From NCBI RefSeq assembly GCF_050873505.1, contig NZ_JBNMIY010000002.1, positions 138,930 to 202,929 on the forward strand: 64,000 nucleotides of DNA. The letters are read 5' to 3'. Position 1 is the first letter of the stretch; every line of letters begins with the position of its first letter. The stretch is from Candidatus Avelusimicrobium sp. (lineage in GTDB: Bacteria; Elusimicrobiota; Elusimicrobia; Elusimicrobiales; Elusimicrobiaceae). Shown one piece after another: positions 2,811 through 45,467 of this stretch. Position numbers and translations under genes: made by a program. Below the pieces are notes generated by a model that saw only the letters and a list, made by a program, of their open reading frames with translations, did not search any database and had not been told where the DNA came from.

Positions 2811-5800
2811 ATGCAATCTTTTCTCTGCCGTGTACTTGCCGTAGTATTTGCTTTAAATTGTATCCTCCCCACCCCCTCGGCGTGGGCGCAGGCTCGCCGT
2901 ACTTCTGCCCAAAAGGCTAAAACGGGTACGTCCTCCCGCCCTAACGTAGGGGCGGCGGTCTCCCAAGCGGCTGATAAGCAACTGCCTACGCAGATTAATC
3001 AGGCGGAAAAACGTTTTGACGACAGAAATCGCACATATTATCAGCGCTACCAAGATTTGGATAAATTGCACCAATTAAAAAAGAAAGAGGCCACGCAAGA
3101 AGAGGCCAGAGAGAAAAAAGCGGCGCAAGAGGCGGCCAGACAAGCGGCAGAGACCTACCAGCAAGATCTGCGCTCCGGCAGAGTGGTAGCGCGGGATGCT
3201 ACTTATGTGGCTCCGCAAATACAGGCTACTCCGATAAAAGCCCCTAAAAACGATGTCTTGGTGCTTCTGTCCAAAGATGAACTGACACTCCAAAATATGG
3301 GTGATTTTATTGACCCGATGGGCAACCCCAACGATAACTATTTGATGAATACCGTCTATGCTTCCGAGGCCTTGGGCAACACGGTAGATTATATGTTGCA
3401 AATGGTGCAAAGCGGCAACGCGGACCCGACCGCCTTGGAAGAATTTAACAGCGACTTGGAAAGCGTTTATATGCGTATGGCGTACCGTGAGGGGATGCTT
3501 TCCTCTATGGCGCACGATTCTATGATTCGCACAATGGCGGTAGGTTCGTTGCGTATTGCTATGCTCAAAGCGCACAACTACTTGGTTGCCGTAAAAAAAC
3601 AGGACCCGCTTTTAACGCAACAGCAAATTCCCGGTCCTGGTAAAAAAATGACCATTACCACCTATGATACGGTTATGGTCAAACTGCCGGGTACGGACGG
3701 AAAAATGTCCTTTAAGACCAAAAGAGTTCCCAAAAAAGTTACCCAATATGTAAAACAATCGGGCTCGGTGCTTCCGGCTGACCATTTTACTTCGGCGCAA
3801 AACAAATATATTGCCGAAATGGCGGCTGCCGCCAAAAAAGGCCTTAAATCCGACGATGAAAAATTCCAAGATGTTTTGGCCTTGGCGGATTATGCCACCA
3901 AATATACCTTGCTTAATGATCCCTCTTTGGTGGGCGTCTTGGTAAAAACTTTTGACAGCGGCGCCAAAGACAGCGATTTTAAAGCGGACAACGCCCCTGT
4001 GGTAAACCAAATTCTTGCGGGTATAGTGGATGATGCCCGCCAGGAAGCCCGCGGGTCCCAAAAGTGGAACAATGCGATGCAGTTCTTCAAAAACTTTTCC
4101 GACCCGAAGGTTTACTCTCTTTCCACGCGTGTAATCGCGCTGGAAGCGGCGTCCGTGTTAATGGGCAATCAAGCCGGAAACGAAATGAGCAAGGGCGAAT
4201 TTGCTTTGCGCAAAACTCTTGCCCGCCGCGCGGCTGATTTGTATGAACCGTTACAAGGTTCCTATTATAAGGATTACGGCTTGGATTCCAAACAGATGCA
4301 GGCGTTGTCCGACAAGTTGGCGGGTATTTACAACCAATTTGCTACGGAACCTTTAAAACTGGTGGAATACATCAATACCGGGTCCGAACCCGTTGCCGGA
4401 ATTAAAGGACTCATTTCCCCCGGCGAAAAAGGTTTAATTGTCGCCAACGACCCCAATACCTCTATTCCGGCTATTGCGCCTGCTAACAGCGGCTATATGG
4501 TGGAAAACCCGGACGGCTCTCTCCGTACGATTTACGGGTATGTATATACGTCCAAAGGTCGCTGGGTGGAAATTGCCCAACACAACGGTTTAAACCGTGC
4601 TAAGGTGGATAAAGAAAACGCCACGGCGTTCTTCTGGTTTGTGGGCGAAGCCGTCCTGTGGGTATATGGCGGCGCTATTTTGGAAACGGCCTGCCAAGCC
4701 TTCCGCTTTGCGCGCGGGGCAATGCTGGCGATGCCGAAAGCCCTTAACGCGGCCGCCAAATCCAATAAAGGCCGTGCTCTTTTGACCTTCCGCGTGGAAC
4801 TGACCAAAGCGGGGCGGTTATCCTCTTATACTGCAAAAGCCGTTGATAATAACGTCATTATGGCTGTGCGCTATATTGACAAAGGCAAGGCTCCGGCTAC
4901 TACGCTCCCGTCCAAAATGGGCGAAGGGCTTGCCCCTGTCGTCAAAACAAAGGTAATTGCCCAGCCGGGCCGCTCCTCTATGCGCTTTTTGCAGAACGAA
5001 TACTCCCGCCTGAATCCGAAACGCTGGGTGGGTATGACGCCCAACCGTGAAATTGTCGGCGTAGATTTTTACCAGGTATTGCCCGGTGGCGTACAAAATG
5101 CGGGCTCGGTAAACTTTACGGGCAGATTGGCCTCGCTCCAAGGCGGTGTGAAGGATTACGATATGCTGCGCTTAATGAACCACGGCGTGCAAGGGATGCA
5201 AAAATCCGAGTGGATGTATCCTTGGCTTAAATTGTCGGTGCCGCAACTGCGCGAAGCGCGGGCTTATTCCCGTATGATGGGTATGTCCGAAGATGCGGCA
5301 AAATCCGGCGCGTTTGACGGCTGGGTAGAGGTTAAAATGCCGGTGTACGGTTCGGACAAAATGCCGGTACTGGCCAGCCAACCGGGTGCCACGGGCGTAA
5401 CGATGGAAAATTCGTGGTGGAACTTAACCAAGTTGGGCAAGCCGGGCAACGAACTGGCCGGAACAGATGTGGTAATAGCCCCGGCAATGGGCCGTGCTTC
5501 TGCCTTGACCACCTTTGACCCGCTTTCTATTCCGGGGGCTGTCAAATTCCCGGCGCAAATGCTTGCCAACGGGCAATGGGCGGAACAAGTCAGCCAGCAA
5601 TATTTTAGAATTGCCAACTATAATAATAAATTCTTGGATTCGTTTATGCCGCGCCTGGTGCCGACGAAAGCCTTTGCCACGGAATTTTTGACCAACCCGC
5701 GCTTTGCGTGGAGTATGGGCAAGGCTTGGCTGAAAACCAGTTCCTTTACGCAAGGCGTAGCCGGAAACCTGATCTTCTTCGGCGCCTTAGCCGGAGCGGA

Positions 5801-6845
5801 CTATGGGACCTATCCGTTAGTAATGGGCCACATTACGGGTAAAGGCGAGCAAGAGGTAAAAGCAGAAATGGCTAAACCCAAATACGGGGGCGCCTACGAC
5901 CCGGCTAAACTCAAAGAGGACGAGAAAAACCAAGAAGAAGTTTTGGCACAACTCAAAGCCGAAGGCCAGGACTATAACACCAAGCAAATGGACACCTATG
6001 AAACGGTAACCGGAGCGGAAAAGGAGTCCCGTGAAGGTATGTTTATGGGGTCTCCGATTATCTTCGGGCGCGAAGCCTTAGGCAACTTGGGCGTAATGGA
6101 AAATATGTATGTTACCACGCCCTTAAAGAAACGCTTGCAGTATCAGGCGGCCAGCGTGAACTTTAACCGCGCGTCCGGCGAGGGCAACAAAGTAAAGAAC
6201 CAAAAAGCCCTTGATAACATTATTAAGGCGCAAACTGAGATGATAGCGGTGCAAAAACGCGTTACCTTGGAAAGTTACAAACCGTATGTTTCCGCCGCCG
6301 AACTGAAACAAATGGGCGCTTGGTACGATGAGTATTTAAACACGGTGATTGCTTCCTTGCGCAGCAATGCTCCGTCTGCTGTCAAGCAGAAACAGCAGGA
6401 AGATGCGGCAAACTTGCTGAATTCCCGTTTGTTTGAAGTAAAAGACAAAGTAGAGCGGAAAATGGAACTCTTGGGCGAAGAAGCCACCGACCAAGCAAAG
6501 GCCCAAGATGAAATGATGTTGGCTTCGGAAAAATCGGGCTGGATTACCGCCTTTGAGCAGTATGGCTTGGCAGATAAATCTGCCGAAGTAACAGTGTTCT
6601 TTGATTCCTTTATCCCGCGCTTTTTGAAGGCGTATGATATCAAGGATGCAACCGCCAGAAACGCGGCTCTTGATAAATTGGTTAGCGAATATGAAAACAA
6701 GTGCACGGAGTGGAATAGCCTTCTCCAACCTGAGGCCACTAAACGCCAAGAGATGGTAAGAACCGAGAAGGGCGAACCGGATTTTTCAACGGATGACGAC
6801 CAACTCCAAAACTTCCAAGTAGAAAAGCCGGCAACTGCGCAATAA
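2811..6845 (+). CDS. Large (1344 aa) signal-peptide protein of unknown function, paralog A; two internal hydrophobic segments and K/E/Q/A-rich coiled-coil-like ends
   Basis: A 4-kb uninterrupted ORF with a strong SD and the signal peptide MQSFLCRVLAVVFALNCILPTPSAWA|Q. Hydrophobic segments are FFWFVGEAVLWVYGGAILETA and GNLIFFGALAGADYGTYPLVMG. I recognise no known domain. Confidence 0.85.
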   Translation: MQSFLCRVLAVVFALNCILPTPSAWAQARRTSAQKAKTGTSSRPNVGAAVSQAADKQLPTQINQAEKRFDDRNRTYYQRYQDLDKLHQLKKKEATQEEAREKKAAQEAARQAAETYQQDLRSGRVVARDATYVAPQIQATPIKAPKNDVLVLLSKDELTLQNMGDFIDPMGNPNDNYLMNTVYASEALGNTVDYMLQMVQSGNADPTALEEFNSDLESVYMRMAYREGMLSSMAHDSMIRTMAVGSLRIAMLKAHNYLVAVKKQDPLLTQQQIPGPGKKMTITTYDTVMVKLPGTDGKMSFKTKRVPKKVTQYVKQSGSVLPADHFTSAQNKYIAEMAAAAKKGLKSDDEKFQDVLALADYATKYTLLNDPSLVGVLVKTFDSGAKDSDFKADNAPVVNQILAGIVDDARQEARGSQKWNNAMQFFKNFSDPKVYSLSTRVIALEAASVLMGNQAGNEMSKGEFALRKTLARRAADLYEPLQGSYYKDYGLDSKQMQALSDKLAGIYNQFATEPLKLVEYINTGSEPVAGIKGLISPGEKGLIVANDPNTSIPAIAPANSGYMVENPDGSLRTIYGYVYTSKGRWVEIAQHNGLNRAKVDKENATAFFWFVGEAVLWVYGGAILETACQAFRFARGAMLAMPKALNAAAKSNKGRALLTFRVELTKAGRLSSYTAKAVDNNVIMAVRYIDKGKAPATTLPSKMGEGLAPVVKTKVIAQPGRSSMRFLQNEYSRLNPKRWVGMTPNREIVGVDFYQVLPGGVQNAGSVNFTGRLASLQGGVKDYDMLRLMNHGVQGMQKSEWMYPWLKLSVPQLREARAYSRMMGMSEDAAKSGAFDGWVEVKMPVYGSDKMPVLASQPGATGVTMENSWWNLTKLGKPGNELAGTDVVIAPAMGRASALTTFDPLSIPGAVKFPAQMLANGQWAEQVSQQYFRIANYNNKFLDSFMPRLVPTKAFATEFLTNPRFAWSMGKAWLKTSSFTQGVAGNLIFFGALAGADYGTYPLVMGHITGKGEQEVKAEMAKPKYGGAYDPAKLKEDEKNQEEVLAQLKAEGQDYNTKQMDTYETVTGAEKESREGMFMGSPIIFGREALGNLGVMENMYVTTPLKKRLQYQAASVNFNRASGEGNKVKNQKALDNIIKAQTEMIAVQKRVTLESYKPYVSAAELKQMGAWYDEYLNTVIASLRSNAPSAVKQKQQEDAANLLNSRLFEVKDKVERKMELLGEEATDQAKAQDEMMLASEKSGWITAFEQYGLADKSAEVTVFFDSFIPRFLKAYDIKDATARNAALDKLVSEYENKCTEWNSLLQPEATKRQEMVRTEKGEPDFSTDDDQLQNFQVEKPATAQ

Positions 6846-7043: not shown

Positions 7044-10000
7044 ATGCAATCTTTTCTCTGCCGTGTACTTGCCGTAGTATTTGCTTTAAATTGTATCCTC
7101 CCCACCCCCTCGGCGTGGGCGCAGGTTCGCCGTGCGCCTGCCCAAAAGGCTAAAACGGGTACATCCTCCCGCACTAATGTAGGGGCGGCGGTCTCCCAAG
7201 CGGCGGACAAGCAACTTCAAACCAAGATTAACAACGCCACCAAACGTTACGAAAACAGAAAGTTGACGTGGGTGCAACGCAAAAACGCGTTGGTGGAATT
7301 ACACCGTTTAAAAGACCAACAGGCCACGCAAGAAGAGGCCAGAGCGAAAAAAGCGGCGCAAGAGGCGGCCAGACAAGCGGCAGAGGCTTACCAGCAAGAT
7401 CTGCGCTCCGGCAGAGTGGTCGCGCGGGATGCTACTTATGTGGCCCCCAGACCCGTTACCCTGCCCATAAAAGCCCCCAAAAATGATGTTCTGGAACTGT
7501 TGGCCAACGATGAACTGACGCTCCAAAATATGGGTGAGTTTATTGACCCGATGGGCAACCCCAACGATAACTATTTAATGAATACCGTCTATGCTTCCGA
7601 AGCCTTGGGCAACACGCTAGATTATATGCAGGAAATGGCAAAAAACGGCAGTATGGACGGGGCTGCCTTGGCGCAGTTCAACCAAGATTTAAAGGATGTT
7701 TATCTTCGTATGGCCTACCGCGAAATATCTCTCTCCGCCAAACCGCACGATAGTATGGTGCGTACTATGGCGGTGGGGTCTTTGCGTATTGCTATGCTTA
7801 AAACGCATAACTATTTTACGGCTATGGGCATAAAGGACCCGCTCCTTACCAAGCAAAACCAACCTGTGGCCACCACCGGCAAAGGCTCTACCAAGCCATA
7901 TACAGAATTGGACGGAAAGCGCATCTTTTATCCTACTCCCAATGCCCAGTCTGTACTGCCACCTAACTATTTTGAGGCTCTTCAAAACAAATATATTAAC
8001 GAAATGACCGCCGCAGCCAAGTTGGGCGTGAAAACCTCCGACGAAAAATTCCAAGATGTTTTGGCATTGGCGGACTATGCCACCAAATATACCTTGCTTA
8101 ATGACCCACTTTCCGTGGCTGTATTAGTCAAAAAATTTGACAGCAGTGCCAAAGATACCGATTTTAAAGCGGATAATGCCCCAGTAGTAAACCAGATTAT
8201 TGCGGGCGTAGTAGATGAGGCCCGCCAGGAAGCCCGCGGGTCCCAAAAATGGAATAACGCGATGCAGTTTTTCGCAAATTTCTCCGATCCAAAGTCTTAC
8301 TCCCTGTCCACACGCGTAATTGCTCTGGAAGCGGCTTCCGTGTTAATGGGTAACCAGGCTGGCGATAAAATGGGCCAAGGCGAATTTGCTTTGCGCCAAA
8401 CCTTTGCCCGCAGAGCGGCTGATTTGTATGAACCGTTGCAAGGTTCCTACTATAAAGATTATGGCTTGGATTCCAAACAAATGCAAGCACTGTCCGACAA
8501 ACTGTCCAACATTTACAACCAATTTGCTACGGAACCCTTAAAACTGGTGGAAATTACCAATAATGGGACTACGGCTATTCCGGGCGTGAAAGGGCTTATT
8601 GAGCCCGGAGAAAAAGGTATCGTTATTGCTAACGACCCCAAGACCTCTATTCCCGCCATTGCGCCTGCCAACAGCGGCAATATGGTGCAAAACCCGGATG
8701 GCTCCGTCCGTACGATTTACGGGTATGTATATACCTCCAAGGGCCGCTGGGTGGAAATTGCCCAACATAACAATTTAAATAGGGCCAAAGTGGATAAGGA
8801 AAACGCCACGGCGTTCTTTAAATTCGTGGGCGATGTGTTTTTGTGGGTATATGCCGGTGCCATTTTGCAAACGGCGTGCCAAGCATTTAGTTTTGCCCGC
8901 GGCGCAATGCTGGCCTTGCCGAAAGCCCTTAATGTGGCCGCCAAATCCAATAAAGGGCGCAAACTCTTAGCGTTCCGCGTGGAACTGACCAAAGCCGGGC
9001 GTTTGGCTTCTTATACCGCAAAGGCCGCTGGTAATAATGTTACGCTAACCGTGCGTTATATTGAAACAGGCAAAGCCCCCACCACTACCCTTCCGGCTAA
9101 GATGGGCGAAGGCGTTGCCCCGGTGGTCAAGAAAGTGGAACAGCCGTCTATGCGTGTTTTACAGAACAAATACCCCCTCTGGAACCCGAACCGCTGGTTG
9201 GGGCTGCCCCGCAACCGCCAAATTATCGGGTTAGATGCTTCCCAAGTGTTACCTGGTGGGGTTGTAAATAATTGGTCTTTGGATTTTACGGGTAGATTGG
9301 CCTCCTTGCAGGACGGCGTGAAGAATTACGAGATGTTGCGCTTAATAAACCACAGTATCCAAGGTGCACAAAAATCTGTTGGGATTTATCCTTGGCGGCT
9401 TTTGACCTTTGCAGAACTGCGCGAAGCACAGGCCTATTCCCGTATGTATGCTATAAGCCAAAATGTAGCCCAATCAGGCGGGTTTGACGGCTGGGTAAAT
9501 GTTAAAATACCGGTGTACGGTTCGGACAAAATGCCGGTATTGGCCAGCCAACCGGGTGCCACGGGTGTAACGATGGAAACTTCGTGGTTTAACGTTACCA
9601 AATTGGGCAAACCTGCCAATGAACTGGCGAGTACCGATGTGGTAATTGCCCCGGCAATGGGCCGTGCTTCCGCCTTGACTACCTTTGACCCGCTTTCTAT
9701 CCCGGGGGCTGTCAAATTCCCGGCGCAAATGTTAAAAGACGGCCAATGGGTGCGCCAAGTAGGGGAGCAATATTTTAGCGTTGCCACCTATAATAATAAA
9801 TTAGGAAATTTGTTTATGCCTCACCTTATTCCGACAAAAGCCTTTGCGCAGGAATTTGTTACCAACCCGCGCTTTGCTTGGACTATGGGCAAGGCTTGGC
9901 TGAAAAACAGTGCCTTCGCTCAGAATCTTAAATTCTTCGGCTGGTGGGCTCTGGCGGACTATGCAGTCTATCCGTTCGTAATGGGCCACGTTACGGGTAA

Positions 10001-11036
10001 AGGCGAACAAGAAGTAAAAACAGAATTGGCTAAACCCAAATACGAGGGTGCCTACGACCCGGCCAAAGTCAAAGAGGACGAGAAAAACCAAGAAGAAGTT
10101 TTGGCCAAACTCAAAGCCGAAGGCCAGGACTATAACACCAAGCCTATGGACACCTACGAAACGGTAACCGGGGCGGAAAAGGAATCCCCTGAAGGAATGC
10201 TTTTGGGGTCTGCGTATCTCTTCGGGCGCGAAACATTGGGCAACTTGGGCGTAACTGAGAGTATGTATGTTCCCGCCTCTTTACAGAATCGCTTGCAATA
10301 TCAAGCGGCCAGCGTGAACTTTAACCGTGCATCCGGCGAGGGTAACAAGGTAAAGAACCAAAAGGCCCTTGATAACATTATTAAGGCGCAAACCGAGAAT
10401 GTTGCGGTGCAAAAACGCGTTACCTTGGAAAGTTATAAACCGTATGTTTCCGCGGCCGAACTGAAACAAATGGGCGCTTGGTATGACGAGTATTTAAACA
10501 TGGTGATTGCTTCCTTGCGCAGCAATGCTTCGTCTGCCACCAAGCAGAAACAGCAGGAAGATGCGGCAAAATTGCTTACCTCACGCCTTCACCCAGTGGA
10601 AGAGCGGGTCCAACGTCAACAGGAACTCTTAGGTGAGGCATTTTCCTGGCAAGAAAAAGCCAGAAATGAAATTCTCTTGTCTGCTGAAAAAACCTATTGG
10701 ATTATAAAGTTTGCTCAATATGGCTTGTCGGACAAATCCGGCGAAGCGCGGGCGTTCTTTGAGTCCTTTATTCCCCGCTTTTTGAGTGTGAGTGATATCA
10801 AGGATAATAATGCAAAAATGGCGGCCGCTGAAAAGTTGAATCAAGAATTGACGAACAAATATACCGAGTGGGAAACTAAATATATTGAACCCGCAAAGAA
10901 CAAGCACAACCAACAGGTAAAAACGGAAAAGGCGGAGCCGTTTGCTTCGGGCTCTTCCCAGCAAACCATACAGGTTGATAGCACGGATAATCCGCTGAAA
11001 AACTTCCACTTGGACAAGCCGGCGACCGCGCAATAA
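7044..11036 (+). CDS. Large (1330 aa) signal-peptide protein of unknown function, paralog B
   Basis: The signal peptide is identical to paralog A. Long near-identical blocks alternate with replaced patches, and both proteins end in KPATAQ. Confidence 0.85.
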   Translation: MQSFLCRVLAVVFALNCILPTPSAWAQVRRAPAQKAKTGTSSRTNVGAAVSQAADKQLQTKINNATKRYENRKLTWVQRKNALVELHRLKDQQATQEEARAKKAAQEAARQAAEAYQQDLRSGRVVARDATYVAPRPVTLPIKAPKNDVLELLANDELTLQNMGEFIDPMGNPNDNYLMNTVYASEALGNTLDYMQEMAKNGSMDGAALAQFNQDLKDVYLRMAYREISLSAKPHDSMVRTMAVGSLRIAMLKTHNYFTAMGIKDPLLTKQNQPVATTGKGSTKPYTELDGKRIFYPTPNAQSVLPPNYFEALQNKYINEMTAAAKLGVKTSDEKFQDVLALADYATKYTLLNDPLSVAVLVKKFDSSAKDTDFKADNAPVVNQIIAGVVDEARQEARGSQKWNNAMQFFANFSDPKSYSLSTRVIALEAASVLMGNQAGDKMGQGEFALRQTFARRAADLYEPLQGSYYKDYGLDSKQMQALSDKLSNIYNQFATEPLKLVEITNNGTTAIPGVKGLIEPGEKGIVIANDPKTSIPAIAPANSGNMVQNPDGSVRTIYGYVYTSKGRWVEIAQHNNLNRAKVDKENATAFFKFVGDVFLWVYAGAILQTACQAFSFARGAMLALPKALNVAAKSNKGRKLLAFRVELTKAGRLASYTAKAAGNNVTLTVRYIETGKAPTTTLPAKMGEGVAPVVKKVEQPSMRVLQNKYPLWNPNRWLGLPRNRQIIGLDASQVLPGGVVNNWSLDFTGRLASLQDGVKNYEMLRLINHSIQGAQKSVGIYPWRLLTFAELREAQAYSRMYAISQNVAQSGGFDGWVNVKIPVYGSDKMPVLASQPGATGVTMETSWFNVTKLGKPANELASTDVVIAPAMGRASALTTFDPLSIPGAVKFPAQMLKDGQWVRQVGEQYFSVATYNNKLGNLFMPHLIPTKAFAQEFVTNPRFAWTMGKAWLKNSAFAQNLKFFGWWALADYAVYPFVMGHVTGKGEQEVKTELAKPKYEGAYDPAKVKEDEKNQEEVLAKLKAEGQDYNTKPMDTYETVTGAEKESPEGMLLGSAYLFGRETLGNLGVTESMYVPASLQNRLQYQAASVNFNRASGEGNKVKNQKALDNIIKAQTENVAVQKRVTLESYKPYVSAAELKQMGAWYDEYLNMVIASLRSNASSATKQKQQEDAAKLLTSRLHPVEERVQRQQELLGEAFSWQEKARNEILLSAEKTYWIIKFAQYGLSDKSGEARAFFESFIPRFLSVSDIKDNNAKMAAAEKLNQELTNKYTEWETKYIEPAKNKHNQQVKTEKAEPFASGSSQQTIQVDSTDNPLKNFHLDKPATAQ

Positions 11037-24070: not shown

Positions 24071-24709
24071 TTACCGTACCGCCAAGGGTACATAAGACCC
24101 TTGCAACAGCGGGCTGTATTGCAAATTAGCAGGTTTGTTGTAATTGAGGAACAAGACCTGGCTTTCCGTATCTACCACAATAGACAAGGTGCGGTTGCGT
24201 TCGTCCTTGGGGTTTTTTAAGGTAAGCAAAATGGCTCTTTTGTATTGGGCCGCCTGATATGGATAGGCCTTGCCTTTAAAAAACTCAATAAAATACGCCA
24301 CGGCGTCTTTGGGCATATAGCAAAAATCGCGCACGTCAATCGCGGTTAATTTATAGTGATGAAAGATTTTATTTTCTCTGGCCGCGCGGGTAAGCACCGT
24401 ATAAGAGGTACGGCAAGCCTGCGTAAAGACAGAGGGGCGCGTAGCGGCCAATTTGGAAAAGAAATCCGATAAACGGTTTTCCTCGTAAGAGTTGGCGCGT
24501 GCCTTTACGATAGCGCGAGAAACGGAAGCCCCCAGCGGGCCGTTGGCTCTATTCATATTTTGGTGAGCCTTTAAAATGGCATTTTGCCAAGAAATATAAT
24601 GAAGATGTTGTTTAGCCACGCGCTTAGGTGCGTGGCTGGCATTGGCTACTCCGGCCATACAAAGCGATAAAACCAGCAGGCATACAGCAGATATTTTCTT
24701 ATAATTCAT
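24071..24709 (-). CDS. Secreted hypothetical protein, paralog of 29649-30242
   Basis: The ATG at 24709 is preceded by GGAGAAAAAA. The signal peptide is MNYKKISAVCLLVLSLCMAGVANA. It shares blocks with the other copy (RDFC, Y/QYxxAILL, C-terminal PL.VR/LPLR). Confidence 0.7.
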   Translation of the reverse strand: MNYKKISAVCLLVLSLCMAGVANASHAPKRVAKQHLHYISWQNAILKAHQNMNRANGPLGASVSRAIVKARANSYEENRLSDFFSKLAATRPSVFTQACRTSYTVLTRAARENKIFHHYKLTAIDVRDFCYMPKDAVAYFIEFFKGKAYPYQAAQYKRAILLTLKNPKDERNRTLSIVVDTESQVLFLNYNKPANLQYSPLLQGSYVPLAVR

Positions 24710-24763
24710 TTTTTTCTCCTTAAAATCCATTGTACTAATTGAAATGCTTTACGGCAAGGTGTT

Positions 24764-28157: not shown

Positions 28158-29468
28158 ATGCCGAATAAAATTAAAGTACAAGCAAAAGACGTATCCGAGG
28201 CTATCGCCAAGGGTTTAAAAGAATTAGGATTAAGACGCGACCAAGTGGAAGTAACCGTGTTGGAAACGCCTAAAAAAGGTTTCTTGGGCATCGGTTCCCG
28301 CCCGGCGGTAGTGGAACTTCGCCAGAAACGCTGGTCCACCGCCAATTTGGATGCGCAAATTTATATGGACGTTCCGAAAAAACGCCCCTCCAAATCCCGC
28401 AACGGGCGCAACAACCGCAAGGAAGCCCACGGCAACCGCCGCAATAACCGCAGAAGCGAACGCGTGTTAGACGTGCGCGAACCGCGCGAAAAGGCTCCTA
28501 AGGCTAACGAGCCCCAAATGCTCCCCTGCGAGGCTATCCGCAACGCCGTCATCCCGGAAAATTTGAAAGCCCCTATGGCCGAAGCCAAGGAATACTTGGA
28601 GAAAGTGCTTACCCATATGGGTATTAAGGTGGAAAATTTGAACGTCTGGTGGGACGACAAACAACAGCGTATTTTGCTGACGTTTGACTGCGATCACCCG
28701 GCTATTGTTATTGGCAAAGAGGGCAAAACCTTGGAAGCCATCCAATACCTGTGCACCTTGGCGTTGAGCCGCCACTTTGACAAGCCGATTTCCGTCATTA
28801 CCGATACGCAAAACTATTGGAGAAAGGCCGAAGACAAAATCAATGCCGAAATTGAAAAAGGTATTGATATGATTAAACGCGGCAACAGTGTGTTCCGCTT
28901 CCGCCCGATGAGCGCGCAACTGCGCCGCTACATCCACCGCGCGGTAGAAGGAAACGAATTTGTAACCACCGCCAGCGAAGGCGAAGGTAAATGGCGCAAA
29001 GTAACCCTGCGCCCGACCGAGAAAGCGTTGGAAGCCGCCCGCGCCAACACCGCGCCTGCGGACTTTGTGCCCGGCGTAATCGGCGAGGACATCCCCGAAG
29101 AAGCCAAAACTGAAACGGTGCAGGAAGAAGTAGTTGTAACCGTGGAAAACGGTGCCGAAAAGGAAACCTGCGCGGTAGAAGCAGTGGAAGAATGCCCCTG
29201 CTGCCACCACGAGGAAGAAGCGCACGAAACCTGCTCCTGCTGTGAAGGCGAACACGATTCTTGCGCGTGTGAATCTTCTGCCAAGGCCGAAGAGCCCGCC
29301 CAAGCACAAGCCCCGGCGGAAGAAAATAAGCCCGAAGCGGCTCCGGCTGATCAAGCGGAAAAGCCTGCCACCGAAGAGAAAAAGGAATCCTGCGGCGGAT
29401 GCTGTGATTCTTGCAACTGCGGCCCGCTGTTTGAAACCCCGGCCGACAAACCCGCCGAAACCAAATAA
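28158..29468 (+). CDS. jag: Jag/KhpB-type RNA-binding protein (Jag_N, KH, R3H) with a basic insert and a long acidic Cys/His-rich C-terminal tail
   Basis: The N-terminus KVQAKDVSEAIAKGLKELGLRRDQVEVTVLETPKKGFLGIG is Jag_N-like. A KH-like VIGKEGKTLEAIQYL is followed by an R3H-like region. The position after yidC is conserved. Confidence 0.85.
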   Translation: MPNKIKVQAKDVSEAIAKGLKELGLRRDQVEVTVLETPKKGFLGIGSRPAVVELRQKRWSTANLDAQIYMDVPKKRPSKSRNGRNNRKEAHGNRRNNRRSERVLDVREPREKAPKANEPQMLPCEAIRNAVIPENLKAPMAEAKEYLEKVLTHMGIKVENLNVWWDDKQQRILLTFDCDHPAIVIGKEGKTLEAIQYLCTLALSRHFDKPISVITDTQNYWRKAEDKINAEIEKGIDMIKRGNSVFRFRPMSAQLRRYIHRAVEGNEFVTTASEGEGKWRKVTLRPTEKALEAARANTAPADFVPGVIGEDIPEEAKTETVQEEVVVTVENGAEKETCAVEAVEECPCCHHEEEAHETCSCCEGEHDSCACESSAKAEEPAQAQAPAEENKPEAAPADQAEKPATEEKKESCGGCCDSCNCGPLFETPADKPAETK

Positions 29469-29648: not shown

Positions 29649-30242
29649 ATGAATTTTAAGACTTTTTTTACTGCTGCTGTATTGTGTATTACGCTCTTTT
29701 CTGTAACGATGGAGTCTAAGGCTCAGACATTTTTGATTAATAAACCTGTTACTTGGCAAAACACGCTCCGCCGAATAAATATGCAAGACGGTTATTCCGT
29801 ATTGGGCGTAAAGGTTGGCAAAGCCATAGACCGTATTAGAATACATCACCAAGAACAAAAGGAATTGGACCGTTTTTTTGCGTCGTTACCCGTTAAAAAG
29901 GCTTCTGCCTGCAAAATGCAGTACACGCTGCTTAAAAGAGCCGTTGCGCAGAACCCGGTATTAGGTGAGTATCTACTGACGGCCCGTCCATTAAGAGATT
30001 TTTGTACTCTTTCCGCACAAGACCGTAATCAGATTATCAAAATGTTTCAAAATAAAATTACCGTCTCGTCCGCTACCCAATACCAAAATGCAATCTTGCT
30101 GAGGCTGGATGTTCCCGGGGCGAATTTGTGGTTTGTGATTCTGCCTAACAAAAAATTAATCAGTTACACTTTTAATGATCCGGCTGATTTTTACTTTTTA
30201 CCAGAATTGGCTGGACCTTCGCGCAACTTACCCTTACGATAA
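29649..30242 (+). CDS. Secreted hypothetical protein, paralog of 24071-24709
   Basis: SD AAGGAGAAAAAATG, and the signal peptide MNFKTFFTAAVLCITLFSVTMESKA. Confidence 0.7.
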   Translation: MNFKTFFTAAVLCITLFSVTMESKAQTFLINKPVTWQNTLRRINMQDGYSVLGVKVGKAIDRIRIHHQEQKELDRFFASLPVKKASACKMQYTLLKRAVAQNPVLGEYLLTARPLRDFCTLSAQDRNQIIKMFQNKITVSSATQYQNAILLRLDVPGANLWFVILPNKKLISYTFNDPADFYFLPELAGPSRNLPLR

Positions 30243-31045: not shown

Positions 31046-31912
31046 ATGAATTTTCAGGATATGATATCCGCTTTGAACCATTACTGGACTAAACAAGGCT
31101 GCGTTCTTGTTCAGCCCTACGACGTGGAAAAAGGCGCCGGAACGTACAACCCGGAAACCTTTTTCGGCTCGCTTACCAAAAAGCCCGTCAAACGCGCCTA
31201 TGTGGAACCCTGCCGCCGCCCTGCCGACGGCCGCTATGGCGAAAACCCCAACCGCTTGGGCAAATATTACCAATACCAGGTAATTATGAAGCCCGCCCCG
31301 GCCAATGTGCAGGAAATGTATTTAAATTCCTTAAAAGCCATTGGTTTGGACCCCAAACAGCACGACGTGCGCTGGATTGAGGACGATTGGCAATCCCCCA
31401 CCTTGGGCGCTTCCGGCGTCGGCTGGGAAATTTGGCTGGACGGAATGGAAATTACGCAGTTTACCTACTTTCAAAATATGGCCGGCTATGCGTTAAACCC
31501 CATTACGGTAGAAATTACCTACGGGCTTGAACGTATTGCGATGTACTGCCAAAAGGTGGATAATGTATTTGATATCCGCTGGAACGATGAAATTACCTAC
31601 CGCGACGTGCACCACGAGGGCGAACGCCAATTCTCCCATTATTATTTTGAAGAATCCAATGTGGAACACCTGCGCCGCTATATCCAAGAGTGCGAAGAAG
31701 AGTGCTTTGCCTTGTGCAAAAAAGGGCTCTATCTGCCGGCGTATGACGACGCGATGAAACTTTCGCATTACTTTAATATGTTGGAAGCGCGCGGGGCGAT
31801 TTCCGTGTCCGACCGCACCAACAACATTACCAAAATCCGCAATTTAGCCAAGGCCTGCGCCAAAGCCTATGTGGAAAGTGTAGAAAAACAAGAAGAGGAG
31901 GCCGCTAAATGA
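31046..31912 (+). CDS. glyQ: Glycine--tRNA ligase alpha subunit
   Basis: The N-terminus MNFQDMISALNHYWTKQGCVLVQPYDVEKGAGT matches the GlyQ N-terminus as recalled from B. subtilis. The track ORF starts earlier, at 31022. Confidence 0.93.
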   Translation: MNFQDMISALNHYWTKQGCVLVQPYDVEKGAGTYNPETFFGSLTKKPVKRAYVEPCRRPADGRYGENPNRLGKYYQYQVIMKPAPANVQEMYLNSLKAIGLDPKQHDVRWIEDDWQSPTLGASGVGWEIWLDGMEITQFTYFQNMAGYALNPITVEITYGLERIAMYCQKVDNVFDIRWNDEITYRDVHHEGERQFSHYYFEESNVEHLRRYIQECEEECFALCKKGLYLPAYDDAMKLSHYFNMLEARGAISVSDRTNNITKIRNLAKACAKAYVESVEKQEEEAAK

Positions 31913-33987
31913 ACGCGCTTTTGGAAATCGGCGTAGAGCATTTGCCTGCCCGCTTTATGGCCCCGGCTTTAAAGCAATTAAAAACCTTAACCGCCCAGGT
32001 TTTGGACGAAAAAAGACTGACCTATAAATCCGTTGACTCCTTCGGCACTTACCGCCGTTTGGTGGTGGTCATTGAAGATTTGGCCGAAAAATCGTTAGAC
32101 GTACAAAAAGAAGTAAAGGGGCCGCCTGCCAAACTGTTAAAGGACGCAAACGGCAACTTTACCCCCCAAAGCGCGGGCTTTGCGCAGAAAAACGGCCTGC
32201 TGCCTGAAAAATTAACCGTAAAAGAAACCGAAAAGGGACCGTTTATTTATGCCATCGTTAAAATCAAAGGCGAAAAAACGGTCAAACTGTTGCCCGAAAT
32301 TTTCACCCGCATTGTAACCGGACTTGAATTTGCCAAAAATATGATTTGGGAAGAATCCGGCCTGCGCTACGGCCGCCCGATCCGCTCCCTTATCGGCCTG
32401 TATGGGCATAAGGTAATCAAATTTACCGTGGCGGGCGTTACGGCGGACCGCAACACCTATCCGCTGTCCTCTTTCGGCCGCAAACCGATTAAAGTGGAAC
32501 AAGCGGATAAAGCCTACTATGCTGATCTCCTGCGCGCCCAGCCGCAACCTATTTTGGTATTGCCGGAAGAGCGCAAGGAAGCCCTTATCAAAACCGTTAC
32601 CAACGAAGCCACCGTACGCGGTTATCACGCGGATTTGGACCCGGAACTCATTGAAGAAACCGTCTGGTGCACCGAACATCCGGTGGCCGTGGGCGGAGAC
32701 TTTGAACTTAAATTTTTAACCTTGCCCAAAGAACTGATTACTACCGTTCTTAAAAAGCAGATTAAAATGTTCCCCGTAACCAACGACAAGGGCGAATTGC
32801 AACCGTATTTTATCGCCGTGCGCGACGGTATTTCCGTCAACCAAAACGAAGTGCGCGACGGGTTTAAAAAAGTAATGTCCGCGCGCTTGTCCGATGCCGT
32901 ATTCTTCTTTGAAAACGACAAAAAGGCCGGCTTAAATACCTTTAAAGAAAAACTCAAAAATGTCCTGTTCCTGGAAGGCTTGGGCTCTATGTACGAAAAG
33001 TCCGCAAGAACCCAGCAACTGGCGGATTGGCTGTGCGACAAATTAGGCCAAACCCAGTTAAAAAACACCGTGGATTATGCGGCTTCTCACGCGTATGCGG
33101 ATTTAGCCAGCCACGTGGTGTATGAATTTCCGGAATTGCAGGGCTATATGGGCGGGCAATACGCCGCCTTGGAAGGCCGCAAGGACGCCGCCAAAGCGAT
33201 GGAAGAGTTTTACTTCCCGCTTACGTCCTCTTCCGCCTTGCCGTCCACCGAAGAAGGCAACATCGTTTCCCTCGCCGGGAAAATGGACACCTTGGTCGGA
33301 AACTTTTTAATCGGCCAAATCCCCACCGGGAGCGAAGACCCCTTCGCCTTGCGCCGCCAGGCCTTTGGCGCGGTGCGTATGCTTTTGGAAAAGGATATGC
33401 AAATTTCGCTCAAAGAATTGGTGGAAAAATCCGCTTCCTTATACCCCGCCGGAACCCCGGACAAGGGCTTAAAGGAATTGCCGAATTTCTTGTTCCAGCG
33501 TTTAGCCTTGGTGCTTGAACAGCGCGGGCATAATGCCGCTACGTTAAACGCCGTTTCCAACTGGTACGAACTCCCCCTCACGCAGGTGGAAGCCCTCGTC
33601 AGCGCATTGGAAACCGTCAAAACGGGCGAAGAATTTGCCGCCGTGCTGGAATCGGCCAAGCGTGTGTGCAACATCCTTAAAAAAGCCGGAAACGTAACCG
33701 AAGCGGTGGACGAAAAACTGTTTGAACTCCCCGCCGAAAAAGCGTTATACGACAAAATCCACGAAGTGGATTCCACCTTGGGCTGTGCGGTAAATACCGC
33801 CAAAACCAAGGACGGATATTTAAACGTGCTGAAAACCTATGGCGCGTTTAAAGAACCGTTGGAAAATTTCTTTAAGGATGTAATGGTAAACGCCGAAAAC
33901 CCCGCCGTGCGGCAAAACCGCTTGGCGCTTTTGGCCCGCGTGCGCCGCTACCTCACGCAGACGGTAGCCGACATTACGAGCCTGTAA
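31909..33987 (+). CDS. glyS: Glycine--tRNA ligase beta subunit
   Basis: 692 aa, with an ATGA overlap with glyQ. The N-terminus LLEIGVEHLPARF is typical of GlyS. Confidence 0.92.
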   Translation: MNALLEIGVEHLPARFMAPALKQLKTLTAQVLDEKRLTYKSVDSFGTYRRLVVVIEDLAEKSLDVQKEVKGPPAKLLKDANGNFTPQSAGFAQKNGLLPEKLTVKETEKGPFIYAIVKIKGEKTVKLLPEIFTRIVTGLEFAKNMIWEESGLRYGRPIRSLIGLYGHKVIKFTVAGVTADRNTYPLSSFGRKPIKVEQADKAYYADLLRAQPQPILVLPEERKEALIKTVTNEATVRGYHADLDPELIEETVWCTEHPVAVGGDFELKFLTLPKELITTVLKKQIKMFPVTNDKGELQPYFIAVRDGISVNQNEVRDGFKKVMSARLSDAVFFFENDKKAGLNTFKEKLKNVLFLEGLGSMYEKSARTQQLADWLCDKLGQTQLKNTVDYAASHAYADLASHVVYEFPELQGYMGGQYAALEGRKDAAKAMEEFYFPLTSSSALPSTEEGNIVSLAGKMDTLVGNFLIGQIPTGSEDPFALRRQAFGAVRMLLEKDMQISLKELVEKSASLYPAGTPDKGLKELPNFLFQRLALVLEQRGHNAATLNAVSNWYELPLTQVEALVSALETVKTGEEFAAVLESAKRVCNILKKAGNVTEAVDEKLFELPAEKALYDKIHEVDSTLGCAVNTAKTKDGYLNVLKTYGAFKEPLENFFKDVMVNAENPAVRQNRLALLARVRRYLTQTVADITSL

Positions 33988-34004
33988 ATTAGTTTTCTAA
34001 AAAG

Positions 34005-34039
34005 TCCGCGCCGGAGCAAAATCCGGTGCGGATTTTTTT
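34005..34039 (+). terminator. Intrinsic terminator after glyS
   Basis: An 11-bp stem TCCGCGCCGGA/TCCGGTGCGGA (one G-U pair) is followed by T7. Confidence 0.7.
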
Positions 34040-34088
34040 GTCTTTTTGAGTGGATTTCCGACGGGAAAAATAAGAAAAAAATCACCCC

Positions 34089-34116
34089 TTGACAAAACGC
34101 CCAATCCGCTTATACT
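34089..34116 (+). promoter_or_regulatory. Sigma70-like promoter TTGACA, 16-nt spacer, TATACT driving the orphan RNA
   Basis: A perfect -35 at 34089-34094 and a -10 at 34111-34116. No ORF lies downstream. Confidence 0.55.
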
Positions 34117-34122
34117 ATCCAT

Positions 34123-34565
34123 ACGGGAAGCAATTCCCACCAAGCCGGGAGCCGCAAAAAGCGGATGAGGCGCCGGTGTAGTAAAGGTACAGAAGCAATG
34201 GTGCCGTAGGCCGGAAGGAGTTGGGCCTGTGCGCTTGGAAAGGCTAGGACGGTTGGGTTACATAACTGTCCGGGTGCCTGGTAGGCACAGAGCAGGACGT
34301 ATCTGGCGACCAGTTGGGCAGTCCGTTAAGGGCGGTTTGATTGGGGTGTTATGGGACGGGGCTGTTGCGGTGGATGAAGCGGCGCGGTAGCAGTAGAGTA
34401 GTGTTTCCGTTGGTTGATGTACTTGCTTCGGCCCGCGGGAAAAGCGGAGCGGCGTAAGACCCGGCAGTTGGCGTGTAAAACGCGGAAAGCAGTGTAGTAA
34501 AGGAGTTGAAATGAACAGCAGTAATTAAACCCCTCGGTTTTAGGTAAACCGGGGGGCTCTTTTTT
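34123..34565 (+). ncRNA. Candidate ~440-nt structured non-coding RNA of unknown class
   Basis: The interval runs from a promoter to a terminator, and the track shows no ORF of 60 or more codons in any frame. It contains many short perfect hairpins, including GNRA and UUCG-type loops, and ends in an 11-bp hairpin plus T6 at 34530-34565. I find no hallmark of RNase P, tmRNA, SRP or 6S RNA. Confidence 0.55.
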
Positions 34566-34574
34566 GTGGTTAAA

Positions 34575-34931
34575 TTATTCTAACACGCTGGGTGGCGGAA
34601 GCGCGCTGCCCGCACTCCCGGACGGGGTAATATCCATTGTATTTTGGGGTTCCTCGGGCGTTTTGTTGGCCGGGTCCTCGGTTTCCTCGTCCTGTAAGGG
34701 CGTTAAAATCATTTCCTCGTAACTTTCATCCGGAAGCGGCGTTAAATTTTCCTCGGCAGGCGGAAGCGTTTGCTCCTCGTTTTGGGGTACTACTTTAACC
34801 GTCTTAGGCGCAGTTTTACGCACTTGGGGCTCCCCATTATACGCGTTGGACGGGTTCCACCAGGCAGGCGGATTACCCGCGCAGGCGGCCATAAAGAAAG
34901 AAATAAAAAAAGAGAATACAATCTTCTTCAT
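34575..34931 (-). CDS. Small putative lipoprotein, acidic and Pro-rich
   Basis: The N-terminus MKKIVFSFFISFFMAAC has a lipobox-like MAAC. The remainder is low complexity. Confidence 0.6.
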   Translation of the reverse strand: MKKIVFSFFISFFMAACAGNPPAWWNPSNAYNGEPQVRKTAPKTVKVVPQNEEQTLPPAEENLTPLPDESYEEMILTPLQDEETEDPANKTPEEPQNTMDITPSGSAGSALPPPSVLE

Positions 34932-42980: not shown

Positions 42981-45467
42981 TTAGCCTTTGCACGCTTCCG
43001 TCAACGCCAAATTGTCTTTTAATTGCTTGTAATAGCGCTTAACGGCGGCTTCTTTCTTGGAAAGCGGACGTCCGCCTGCTTCCTTTTGCGCAATACGGGC
43101 GAGCACGGCTTTATTTTCCTTTTCGTATGTTTGCACGTCCGCAGGCGTTACCTGCACTACCAAGCGGCATTTTTCGGCCTTGGCTTGTGCTTGCGCTTTG
43201 GCTGCTTTTTCTGCTTCCAAGGATTTTTTAAATTCGTCAGCAGAAGCCTCTTCCTGCGCGCGGTAGCGGCGGATATCGGCAAACGTCAAATCCAGTTTGC
43301 GCATATCGGCTTTGGCCTGCACCACATCGTTGGGCATACTGAAAAAGTAATAGTCCGAGTAGCGGGTTAAACTGTCCTCATCCGTTTTGTGGAAACGCTT
43401 AAAGAAGCGGTACGCACACAACGAGTGCTTATGCACCGTACGGCCTACGGAATCGGTGTAAAAAGAGCCGTCCGCCATTTCCTGCTTGCACACCACGCAT
43501 TTTGCCTTAGGTGCCGTAGTAGCAACCGTTTGAACAGGTTTTGCTGGCACGTTCGCCGCAGTGAGAACCTGTTTGACGGGTGCCGTTTTTTGTCCATCCG
43601 AAACAGGCTTTTGGGAAACCGCCGCTGGCGTAGTCTTTTTAGCCGTTGCCCCGGCAGGCTTAACAGGCGTAGCCGCAGGAGTAGTTTTGCGCGGAGTAGC
43701 CGTACTGCCCTTTGTGGCAACCGGGCTTGCAAGCGCTACGGGTGCCGTCTTTCTGGCGGGTGTAAATTCCGTGCCTAACTGCGCCAACAAGGGATTATGA
43801 TTTCCCTGCGGTTGCGTCAGTTGGGCCCATGTCGGTACTGCGCGTTTGGTGGCATTATGTTGGTAAGTCTTGCCCAATTTGGACCAGTTTGCCTGTGCTT
43901 GCTCTTCACAAGCCATATGGATATGATACGGGCGGATACGTCCATTTACCTTTACATCTTGGCACAAATACCCGTTTTCCTTTCCCACGGGTTTTCCACA
44001 TACCAAGCACGGATAAGTAACAGACGAAAAATCACTATCCATAGGTTTGGCCGTCAAAATGCCTTTGGCATCCAATATTTCAGAACCGGGGGCATATTGC
44101 CCTTTGTACTGGTTTAAATCTTGCACAAGTTTGGCTATCTGCTGGGAAGAGGCATTTCCTTTACTGTTGGCTACTTGAACAGGCTCTATTTGCTGTTTTA
44201 TAATCTCGCTGATTTTATCCGCCTTTTGCGTTAAATATTGGCACTCGGCAGACAGGGCCAGCCCTTGGTTATCCAAACTCACGCCCACTCCGCGCTTGGA
44301 TTGCAAGGATTCACAACGAGCATCACGCGCTTGTTCTACTTTGCCCAAATAGGCGTTCCAATCTTGGGCAATTTGCACGAGTTGCCCGGCCGCCCCGGCA
44401 TTTTGTTTCCAACTTTTCAAATAGGCCTGAACTTTGGCCAAGTCGGCGGAATCTTTGGCGGGAATTCCTTGCAAATAGGTATAAGGTTTACCACAAAGGC
44501 TCTTCCAGCCGTTTTGCACGCGAGGAGAGTTTTTCCCCTCCATACCCCAAATAAAGTCCACCGCGTTGATAAAACCTTCCAAGTCGTCGCAAGTAAGGAT
44601 GTCTTTATCATTACCCATAATAGAGGACACGCCCTTAAAAACCATTTCGTGCGGTTCCACCCGGAGCAAGGAGTGAACCTTATCCATATTTTGTTTATCC
44701 GCGTACAGGTCCGCTAATCCAAAGAAATGCCCTAATTCGTGCAGAGTAACCCCTTTCATAGAATAGTCCATAACATAACCACCCGCAAAAATCCGGTTAT
44801 TTTTCTCGGCTTCCCGAGACGCCACTTCGTTCGCGGAATAATCGTCGTTGCCCGGCAAAGAAAGTTTCCAAATCGTTTTGTCTTTATCGTACACGCCTTT
44901 TATTCCGCCCGCCGTTCCGCGATGTTTGAAATATTGCTGTTTGATGGAACCATATTGAAAATTTCCCAACGATTTAATACGCAAATCATACTTGCCTTTC
45001 ATCGCTTTGTCGCAATCCTCGCCATTGGGATTAATTACTTGCAATTCAATACGGCGCGGCAGAGCGGCCAAAATATCGGCAAACTCCGCCTTGCGCGCAA
45101 ATTCTGACGCAGGTGCGACAGGCTGCTGTTTTTTGGCTTTCTTTTTACCCTTGGTAGGAGCCGTTTGGACCGGTTGTGCTTCACCCAGTTGTGTGCGGAT
45201 AAAGGCTAACCAAGTATCAAGCGCTTCTTGTGTGGAGCGAACAAAATAATCCCGCGTGATTTTTTGGCGGACCGGGTCGGTACTGGTGCCCTCGGTACTG
45301 ACGCATACGCGAACCTTGGGGTTTTGCGTAGTCAGCACATAATACAAAAAACTGTTTTTGTAGATATAGGGGTTCCCGTTATGGGAAACCAAAGACTGTA
45401 ATATCCCCCACGCGCTTGCAGAGGAAGCAAATACCAAACAAGCAAAAAATAAAAGAAGTTTTTTCAT
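42981..45467 (-). CDS. Secreted zinc-metalloprotease-like protein (HExxHxxGxxD plus SIM Met-turn) with a P/T/A-rich linker, two CxxC...HxHxxC modules and a coiled-coil tail
   Basis: Signal peptide MKKLLLFFACLVFASSASA. HELGHFFGLAD at residues 243-253, SSIMG at 281-285, CLVCG...HIHMAC at 487-520, and CVVCK...HKHSLC at 657-684. Confidence 0.7.
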   Translation of the reverse strand: MKKLLLFFACLVFASSASAWGILQSLVSHNGNPYIYKNSFLYYVLTTQNPKVRVCVSTEGTSTDPVRQKITRDYFVRSTQEALDTWLAFIRTQLGEAQPVQTAPTKGKKKAKKQQPVAPASEFARKAEFADILAALPRRIELQVINPNGEDCDKAMKGKYDLRIKSLGNFQYGSIKQQYFKHRGTAGGIKGVYDKDKTIWKLSLPGNDDYSANEVASREAEKNNRIFAGGYVMDYSMKGVTLHELGHFFGLADLYADKQNMDKVHSLLRVEPHEMVFKGVSSIMGNDKDILTCDDLEGFINAVDFIWGMEGKNSPRVQNGWKSLCGKPYTYLQGIPAKDSADLAKVQAYLKSWKQNAGAAGQLVQIAQDWNAYLGKVEQARDARCESLQSKRGVGVSLDNQGLALSAECQYLTQKADKISEIIKQQIEPVQVANSKGNASSQQIAKLVQDLNQYKGQYAPGSEILDAKGILTAKPMDSDFSSVTYPCLVCGKPVGKENGYLCQDVKVNGRIRPYHIHMACEEQAQANWSKLGKTYQHNATKRAVPTWAQLTQPQGNHNPLLAQLGTEFTPARKTAPVALASPVATKGSTATPRKTTPAATPVKPAGATAKKTTPAAVSQKPVSDGQKTAPVKQVLTAANVPAKPVQTVATTAPKAKCVVCKQEMADGSFYTDSVGRTVHKHSLCAYRFFKRFHKTDEDSLTRYSDYYFFSMPNDVVQAKADMRKLDLTFADIRRYRAQEEASADEFKKSLEAEKAAKAQAQAKAEKCRLVVQVTPADVQTYEKENKAVLARIAQKEAGGRPLSKKEAAVKRYYKQLKDNLALTEACKG

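Follow-up and report, generated by a model that had tools for sequence, protein, structure and literature searches.

A single-copy structured RNA gene beside glyS in gut Elusimicrobiaceae, with a candidate 3' mini-cistron

What occupies the 587-nt gap behind glyS in the genome of a gut Elusimicrobiaceae bacterium? The window analysed here is a 64-kb stretch of that genome, and all positions are window coordinates. In it glyS (31909-33987; GlyRS beta by Pfam, GlyRS alpha being Pfam-confirmed as well) is followed by a convergent open reading frame (ORF) of 118 aa with a lipoprotein-type signal (34575-34931), which closes the gap. A first-pass annotation had placed the two facing stop codons at 33987 and 34575, both confirmed here, and had read the interval as a unit with its own promoter and terminator that yields a structured RNA of ~440 nt. 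That core reading is upheld. Judged by its sequence, the gap is a single-copy, independently transcribed gene for an RNA of ~445 nt which founds a new family without detectable relation to those described. Tentatively, and with somewhat less than even confidence, we further propose that a mini-cistron at the 3' end couples this family of stand-alone structured RNAs to the ribosome.

Relatives were compared within +/-6 kb of glyS in each genome, using 79 GlyS-anchored loci of 98%-34% protein identity, all from Elusimicrobia except three Deferribacteres-like ones. Iterated nhmmer searches found a homologue of 34085-34570 in 56 of these loci. The homologues span promoter to terminator, with both signals conserved along with the RNA body, which evolves faster than glyS (~66-70% nucleotide identity where GlyS is 88% identical). 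A hidden Markov model (HMM) of the family matches the window at 34085-34568 (E = 1e-117), the sole copy there. A composite-motif scan of metagenomes gave one true new member among the matches listed, on a rumen-type contig (L091), the rest being mostly chance; L154 was rejected as a chance match inside a coding sequence. On present sequences the family is found only in gut and rumen Elusimicrobiaceae. The first-pass annotation had looked to conservation in relatives and to compensatory base changes to settle its proposal, and both were found (56 loci; 42 base pairs changed on both sides, described below).

The gap holds no ORF of at least 60 codons. Apart from the five-codon frame described below, no ORF on either strand keeps its position, frame or length among relatives, and L005 lacks any + strand ORF reaching 25 aa; a hidden protein gene was rejected on these grounds. 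The earlier statement that the gap is free of ORFs thus stands at the 60-codon limit but misses a conserved five-codon ORF with a canonical ribosome-binding site (RBS) at 34500-34528, to which we return. Transcription of the interval is framed by the following elements.

33999-34038, + strand: intrinsic terminator of glyS, a 17-pair stem followed by a T run
34065-34116, + strand: promoter, consisting of an UP-like A-rich tract (34065-34084), CCCC, a -35 element, a 16-nt spacer and a -10 element
34123-34565, + strand: inferred transcript of ~443-445 nt, its 5' end set from the -10 spacing and its 3' end from the T run
34530-34565, + strand: intrinsic terminator, an 11-bp stem (34530-34540 with 34547-34556) followed by T6 (34560-34565)

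The glyS terminator, the TTGACA-16-TATACT promoter and the 11-bp hairpin with T6 had all been noticed before and are all present, the first now being placed at 33999-34038. The glyS terminator separates glyQS transcription from the RNA gene, and weak Rfam matches over it are terminator look-alikes only. The -35 (TTGACA, 34089-34094) and -10 (TATACT, 34111-34116) elements match the consensus at 11 of 12 positions, and 45 full-length family members, as well as L091, retain the promoter CCCCTTGA..TATACT, which occurs once in the 64-kb window. The RNA gene is probably strongly expressed, to judge from this promoter. The + strand of the gap is G-rich, as had been stated, with a GC skew of up to +0.42, and it folds more stably than dinucleotide shuffles (z = -2.98; - strand z = -0.21). 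Promoter, terminator, strand-specific fold and conservation together mark the gap as an independent + strand gene. The terminator stem CCCCUCGG/CCGGGGGG is near-invariant in most subgroups, with 98-100% of cells paired; its sequence is conserved far beyond the needs of termination alone.

In all 56 loci the RNA gene lies in a convergent gap adjoining glyS, in either orientation. Four relatives (L036, L037, L055 and L063) carry it on the opposite strand, flipped as a unit. In most loci it faces the lipoprotein gene and lipA; the flipped copies face glyS, and those of rearranged L026, L032 and L200 face recO. A co-oriented gene follows in none of the 56 loci, nor in L200, and since both orientations occur as well, the RNA is not a cis-regulatory leader, in agreement with the first-pass annotation. 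A leader, a riboswitch, a T-box and a glyS 3' untranslated region (UTR) are each ruled out by this synteny, by the orientation flips and by the gene's own promoter and terminator. Many relatives carry inserted DNA between the end of glyS and the RNA promoter, the distance from glyS to the RNA being 600-1000 nt in L009, L013, L015, L016, L022, L035, L059, L074, L075 and others, and 4.7 kb in L052.

The fold was derived from 16 aligned sequences (alignment A1) as an RNAalifold consensus with one outer helix added by inspection, giving 93 pairs in 13 helices. Standard pairs fill 94.1% of A1 cells, against 36-47% when the partners are slid and 88.1% in shuffled alignments. Pairs changed on both sides number 42, against 12-20 for slid partners and 17 ± 3 for shuffles, and none of 500 shuffles reached the observed value by either measure. 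A second alignment (A2), in which the 5' and 3' ends of each of 32 members were joined, tests the long-range stem across subgroups. The helices and loops are as follows.

34125-34138, + strand: 5' leader hairpin GGGAA-GCAA-UUCCC, read from the sequence
34140-34143, + strand: 5' strand of P1, pairing with 34468-34471
34144-34149, + strand: 5' strand of P2, pairing with 34460-34465
34151-34155, + strand: 5' strand of P3, GCCGC, pairing with 34449-34453
34225-34293, + strand: interior domain of helices H5, H6 and H7, including the hairpin GGACGGUUGGGUUACAUAACUGUCC, with 95-100% of cells paired
34310-34344, + strand: interior hairpin H8, 13 pairs of which 8 are changed on both sides, 96% paired
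34403-34443, + strand: universal hairpin arm, H11 (34403-34408 with 34438-34443) around GGUUGA-UGUACUUGCU-UCGGCC (34412-34433)
34449-34471, + strand: 3' strands of the closing stem, comprising P3 (34449-34453), the loop GUAAGA (34454-34459), P2 (34460-34465) and P1 (34468-34471)

On this covariation, a three-part long-range stem, P1-P3, closes a multi-helix RNA body. For P2, pairing is 98% in A1 and 85% in A2, five of its seven pairs being changed on both sides in the latter; P3 is 85% paired in A2 with six of seven so changed (e.g. CG 9, UA 7, GC 5). A long-range helix of 34140-34149 with 34460-34471 had been suggested in the first pass; it corresponds to P1 plus P2, covaries and is the best-supported feature of the RNA. 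Double changes are also frequent in the interior domain (H5 7/10, H6 2/3, H7 6/9), and an unbiased covariation scan disclosed no additional helix. The local hairpins listed earlier fared less well, as five of the seven (AGGCC-N11-GGCCT, GTCC..GTGCC-TGGTA-GGCAC..GGAC, CTGG-CGA-CCAG, GC-TTCG-GC and CCGC-GGGAAAA-GCGG) overlap covariation-backed helices (H4-H8, H11 and the universal hairpin) and give way to them. The leader motif G(G/A)(A/C)AGU is kept in most subgroups, and relatives have a 3-bp GGA/UCC equivalent of the leader hairpin, without covariation.

A sixth hairpin, CCGC-AAAAA-GCGG, can form and is paired in 89% of cells in the window's subgroups, but its covariation does not exceed that of shuffles and it competes with P3, which alone of the two holds family-wide. 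The 5' strand of P3 can thereby pair with an adjacent or a distal AAGCGG (34151-34164 versus 34449-34453; A1 columns 40-45 with 53-58 or 400-405), a word found 33 times in the family against 6.2 expected. The two alternative partners may represent a conformational switch or an internal duplication. A second word, CGGUUG (39 observed, 6.6 expected), belongs to a 5' arm and loop, CGGUUG...(G)AUAA, common to an interior hairpin (34251-34266), the universal hairpin (34410-34424) and the terminator (34535-34549) in all loci, and may mark a common protein site. The 12-mer GTGTAGTAAAGG does occur at 34176 and 34492, as had been reported, but the repeat is not conserved, the first copy being lost already in L003. 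Another short repeat, AAGGAGUUG, is found at 34500-34508 in the Shine-Dalgarno (SD) region and at 34215-34223 in the interior domain, where relatives carry GGAAGAAGUUGG.

All subgroups have the universal hairpin (GGUUGAU..UUCGGC), down to the minimal forms of ~215 nt. It is 97% paired and nearly invariant, with its tandem U.G pairs kept in 30 and 31 of 32 sequences, and this invariance suggests sequence-specific recognition. The hairpin pattern occurs once per matching Elusimicrobiaceae locus, within the RNA, with one extra match in L021. On its 3' strand the closing stem carries a conserved internal loop of 6 nt, GUAAGA in the window and AUAAGU or GUAAAU in relatives, whose UAA is invariant or nearly so across 32 sequences. 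The interior arms vary by lineage, giving total lengths from ~355 to ~550 nt. What remains in the minimal form of L036 and L037 (~215 nt) is the leader, the closing stem and its loop, a single arm, the universal hairpin and the mini-cistron of the 3' tail. These two copies (L036:3684-3941(-) and L037:9453-9715(-), ~215 nt from the presumed start to the terminator) lack most interior helices, keep a UAAAG loop, have the five-codon ORFs MTPCN and MTPSN, and could be used as a minimal construct.

Could this be a known RNA in divergent form? At gathering thresholds, Rfam 15 placed no family in the RNA in the window plus 10 divergent loci (124 kb). A permissive cut-off (E up to 10) for the window, L007, L055 and L044 returned only unrelated noise, different in each member. 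RNase P RNA models (RF00010, RF00011 and related) gave no match at the gathering score or at E up to 10, nor did the SRP and 6S RNA models (RF00169, RF01854, RF00013) at E up to 10 in the four members. ARAGORN detected no transfer-messenger RNA (tmRNA) in 33900-34700, and Rfam RF00023 was likewise negative. The covariance models of OLE, ROOL, GOLLD, raiA and HEARO did not match in the window or the 10 divergent loci. The first pass had seen no hallmark motifs of RNase P RNA, tmRNA, SRP RNA or 6S RNA and could not assign the RNA to OLE, ROOL, GOLLD or raiA, and these scans agree with it. A literature search returned no description of this RNA or of any Elusimicrobia structured RNA. A mobile-element origin was rejected, there being no phage or plasmid match.

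It is extremely improbable that the gene encodes a very divergent housekeeping RNA, whether RNase P RNA, tmRNA, SRP RNA or 6S RNA. What invites the idea is a stand-alone gene with a strong promoter and housekeeping neighbours, a size in the RNase P/tmRNA range, and GUCCG and CCCGG strings superficially like CR-I and P4. In addition rnpA lies 8 kb away inside the window, and an RNase P RNA is accordingly to be expected somewhere in the genome. Class A RNase P RNA also shares the closing long-range helix and the G-rich composition, but the new RNA lacks a covariance model match and CR-I/CR-V, and its 5' and 3' ends are unpaired. The P4-like helix of GUCCGGG with CCCGGC, raised earlier as a reason for caution, was discarded together with a P4 built from CR-I/CR-V, since each strand has another covarying partner: 34268-34274 (H7) pairs with 34247-34255, and 34460-34465 (P2) with 34144-34149. 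The ends of the molecule are an unpaired leader and a terminator, and not a paired P1 or an acceptor stem, and there is no tRNA-like domain. The minimal 215-nt form is, besides, too small for such architectures.

In size (several hundred nt), number of covarying helices, restriction to a lineage, own transcription signals and lack of a cis-regulatory role, the new RNA is like OLE, ROOL, GOLLD and raiA, the group to which the first pass had compared it. It differs from them in having no Rfam match, in belonging to the phylum Elusimicrobiota, and in being without oapA/B/C-type protein genes or a prophage/tRNA context. To our knowledge, none of these four RNAs ends in a canonical RBS and mini-ORF abutting a terminator, and we know of no other large non-coding RNA with a canonical RBS and a 4-10 codon frame set against its terminator.

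This brings the argument to the 3' tail, the part beyond the closing stem, which is purine-rich and mostly single-stranded and holds two further elements.

34500-34505, + strand: Shine-Dalgarno sequence AAGGAG, 5 nt before the AUG
34511-34528, + strand: mini-ORF AUG AAC AGC AGU AAU UAA (MNSSN, stop), with the terminator stem starting at 34530

An SD-like element (AAGGAG or GGAAGG) stands 5-8 nt before the AUG in 45/45 full-length members, and the same SD-AUG-ORF layout is seen in L036-L038, L040, L048, L053 and L091. The AUG is invariant in 32 sequences. The frame is only ever 4, 5, 8 or 10 codons long, changing by whole codons, no member has a premature in-frame stop, and only 0-3 nt lie between the stop codon and the terminator stem. 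The RBS of host genes is built alike (UAAGGAG, 5-8 nt, ATG). Predicted ensemble exposure is 0.55 for the SD and 0.62 for the AUG, against 0.34 for the RNA body. The encoded peptides are unrelated (METSR, MSNR, MKTQS, MKEEK, MHSCC, MIDTK, MTPCN, MTGNS, MSSTRRVSSW), and it would follow from this lack of conservation that the act of translation matters and that the peptide is not the product. The window thus has all the traits of the family, namely the promoter, the closing stem with its UAAR loop, the tandem-U.G hairpin and the SD-AUG mini-ORF abutting the terminator.

In the mechanism that we propose, the RNA would act in trans as a structured RNA, with putative protein partners probably recognising the internal loop and the U.G hairpin. 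The 3' tail would be a working one-ribosome mini-cistron, as the ~50-60 nt from closing stem to terminator should leave room for one ribosome. A ribosome loaded at the mini-ORF would sit between the folded body and the terminator hairpin. When initiating on the AUG it would reach the base of the hairpin, and to arrive at the stop codon it would have to unwind most of the 5' arm of this 3'-end-forming, protecting structure. Translation would then tie the stability or activity of the RNA to the supply of initiating ribosomes, or, as an alternative outcome, leave the folded body docked on the ribosome. Stated as a new class of ribosome-engaging structured RNA, in which the mini-cistron docks the body on a translating ribosome or makes RNA lifetime a readout of free initiating ribosomes, the proposal becomes doubtful, and we regard it as a possibility only. 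If true, such an RNA would sense or tune global translation in Elusimicrobiaceae.

Several points weigh against coupling to the ribosome. Both ends of the transcript are deduced, and the transcript is known from sequence alone. For one subgroup a UCCU immediately 3' of P1 is the predicted partner of the SD (p ~0.9), and there translation may be conditional or absent. The reading-frame argument depends on only ~4 independent length changes. The link from translation to stability or activity is reasoned from geometry, and the protein partners and target of the RNA are putative. Four full-length loci, moreover, gave no family member within 6 kb of glyS.

The small number of indels that test the frame also leaves some room for a plain structured non-coding RNA in which the SD-AUG-stop arrangement is a by-product of sequence constraints on tail and terminator; the stop region (U-R-R-A-CCCC) and terminator are conserved in sequence, and ORF-like features could hitch-hike on them. 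This is unlikely, since the SD, its spacing, the AUG, the open frame and the stop position are kept across subgroups that otherwise share little tail sequence, and the host RBS consensus is matched exactly.

A decoy is an unlikely alternative of another kind: the RBS-like tail would serve without productive translation as a docking site for the 30S subunit or an RNA-binding protein (bS1, bS21 or other), making the RNA a sponge or scaffold. A strong and conserved SD, a promoter suggestive of high expression and the recurring words CGGUUG and AAGCGG would all fit. So would the group B SD, predicted to pair with the adjacent UCCU in the manner of the bS21-binding SD:anti-SD mimic of OLE RNA (PMC12054373), though this pairing is limited to one subgroup. 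A decoy, on the other hand, needs neither an invariant AUG nor in-frame length changes nor a stop fixed at the stem. GGA is not enriched (201 observed against 181.6 +/- 8.7 expected in 20 representatives), which speaks against a CsrA-type sponge, and a CsrB/RsmZ-type RNA was rejected on that count.

The position of the mini-ORF also recalls ribosome-mediated attenuators (pyrBI, trp, his, leu), which have an RBS, a short ORF and an intrinsic terminator and in which the position of the ribosome relative to the hairpin is the key geometry. On such a model a ribosome on the mini-ORF would block the hairpin, read-through would produce antisense RNA to the convergent neighbour, and the large domain would be the sensor. 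The short ORF and RBS beside an intrinsic terminator are indeed found, the geometry of SD, short ORF and terminator is like that of attenuators such as pyrBI, the mini-ORF stop abuts the stem, and convergent genes always lie downstream. But the downstream target differs among loci (lipoprotein gene and lipA, glyS if flipped, recO in three), and the attenuators' downstream structural gene, regulatory codon run and conserved antiterminator are lacking: the terminator arm has no extra covarying helix, the peptides are heterogeneous and there is no conserved anti-SD. A closed domain of 200-450 nt, not found in attenuators, precedes the ORF. Only ~57 nt separate the SD from the hairpin end, a distance over which a ribosome would be unlikely to beat the polymerase without a pause. 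Given the variable target and this short distance, co-transcriptional anti-termination is the less likely course, and we consider a translation-controlled terminator distinctly unlikely. Weak Rfam matches to the His and Leu leaders are terminator look-alikes far below threshold.

Very unlikely, finally, is a micro-peptide gene with a long structured, riboswitch-like 5' UTR; the output would be either the peptide as such or regulated ORF translation. A closed, aptamer-like domain does lie directly 5' of the RBS, and the leader UUCC or UCC patch and the UCCU after P1 can pair with the SD by prediction in some members. Neither the sequence nor the length (4-10 aa) of the peptide is conserved, however; no conserved anti-SD exists, L036 and L037 do largely without the interior domain, and no Rfam riboswitch matches. 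A conserved SD-sequestering switch or leader-tail pairing was likewise rejected, being predicted only in some subgroups and without a covarying helix.

The proposed mini-cistron can be set beside three known arrangements. The new RNA resembles tmRNA (SsrA), which works on the ribosome, in being a structured RNA with a very short frame and a stop codon beside a helix; it has, unlike tmRNA, neither a tRNA-like domain nor paired ends nor a conserved degradation tag, and its normal SD and AUG do not point to trans-translation. Dual-function small RNAs (RNAIII/hld, SgrS/SgrT, SR1/SR1P) also carry a small ORF on a structured RNA, but their ORFs encode conserved functional peptides of ~26-45 aa and lie inside the RNA, whereas those found here have 4-10 unconserved codons and stand against the terminator. 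OLE RNA contains a duplex resembling SD:anti-SD pairing and is bound by the ribosomal protein bS21 (PMC12054373). By analogy, and not by membership, it is an earlier example of a large non-coding RNA with a link to translation.

Strongly covarying large structured RNAs are rare in bacteria, and new biochemistry has come from them repeatedly (RNase P, tmRNA, OLE, ROOL, GOLLD). The present one comes from a poorly studied phylum, has 13 supported helices, and occurs in natural variants of ~215 to ~550 nt that define a minimal core. Should the mini-cistron be functional, here would be a case, open to direct test, of a structured RNA tied to the ribosome in its action or stability. Annotators gain a model of a gene that shows as empty space to protein-gene callers, an uncalled 560-nt stretch in L200 being one example.

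Other features of the window stand apart from the RNA gene. Two tandem + strand genes (2811-6845 and 7044-11036) encode proteins of 1344 and 1330 aa that are 72% identical; each protein starts with a signal-like N-terminus, the RBS regions ahead of the two genes are identical, and a Pfam scan of the first (2811-6842) gave no domain. The recO-rnpA-yidD-yidC-jag block is flanked by two small paralogues (24071-24730 on the - strand and 29649-30242 on the + strand; 30% identity, E = 9e-26), again with signal-like N-termini and, in the one scanned (29649-30239), no Pfam domain. Within this block, a Jag/KhpB homologue (28158-29468, + strand) combines Jag_N, KH and R3H domains with a long acidic, Cys/His-rich C-terminal extension (…CPCCHHEEEAHETCSCCEGEHDSCACE…CGGCCDSCNCG), which from its residues has the look of a metal-binding tail added to an RNA-binding protein. 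An 828-aa protein on the - strand (42981-45467), which matches no Pfam family, has a signal-like N-terminus, a zinc-metalloprotease-like HELGHxxGL motif, a long Pro/Ala/Thr-rich linker and Cys-rich segments.

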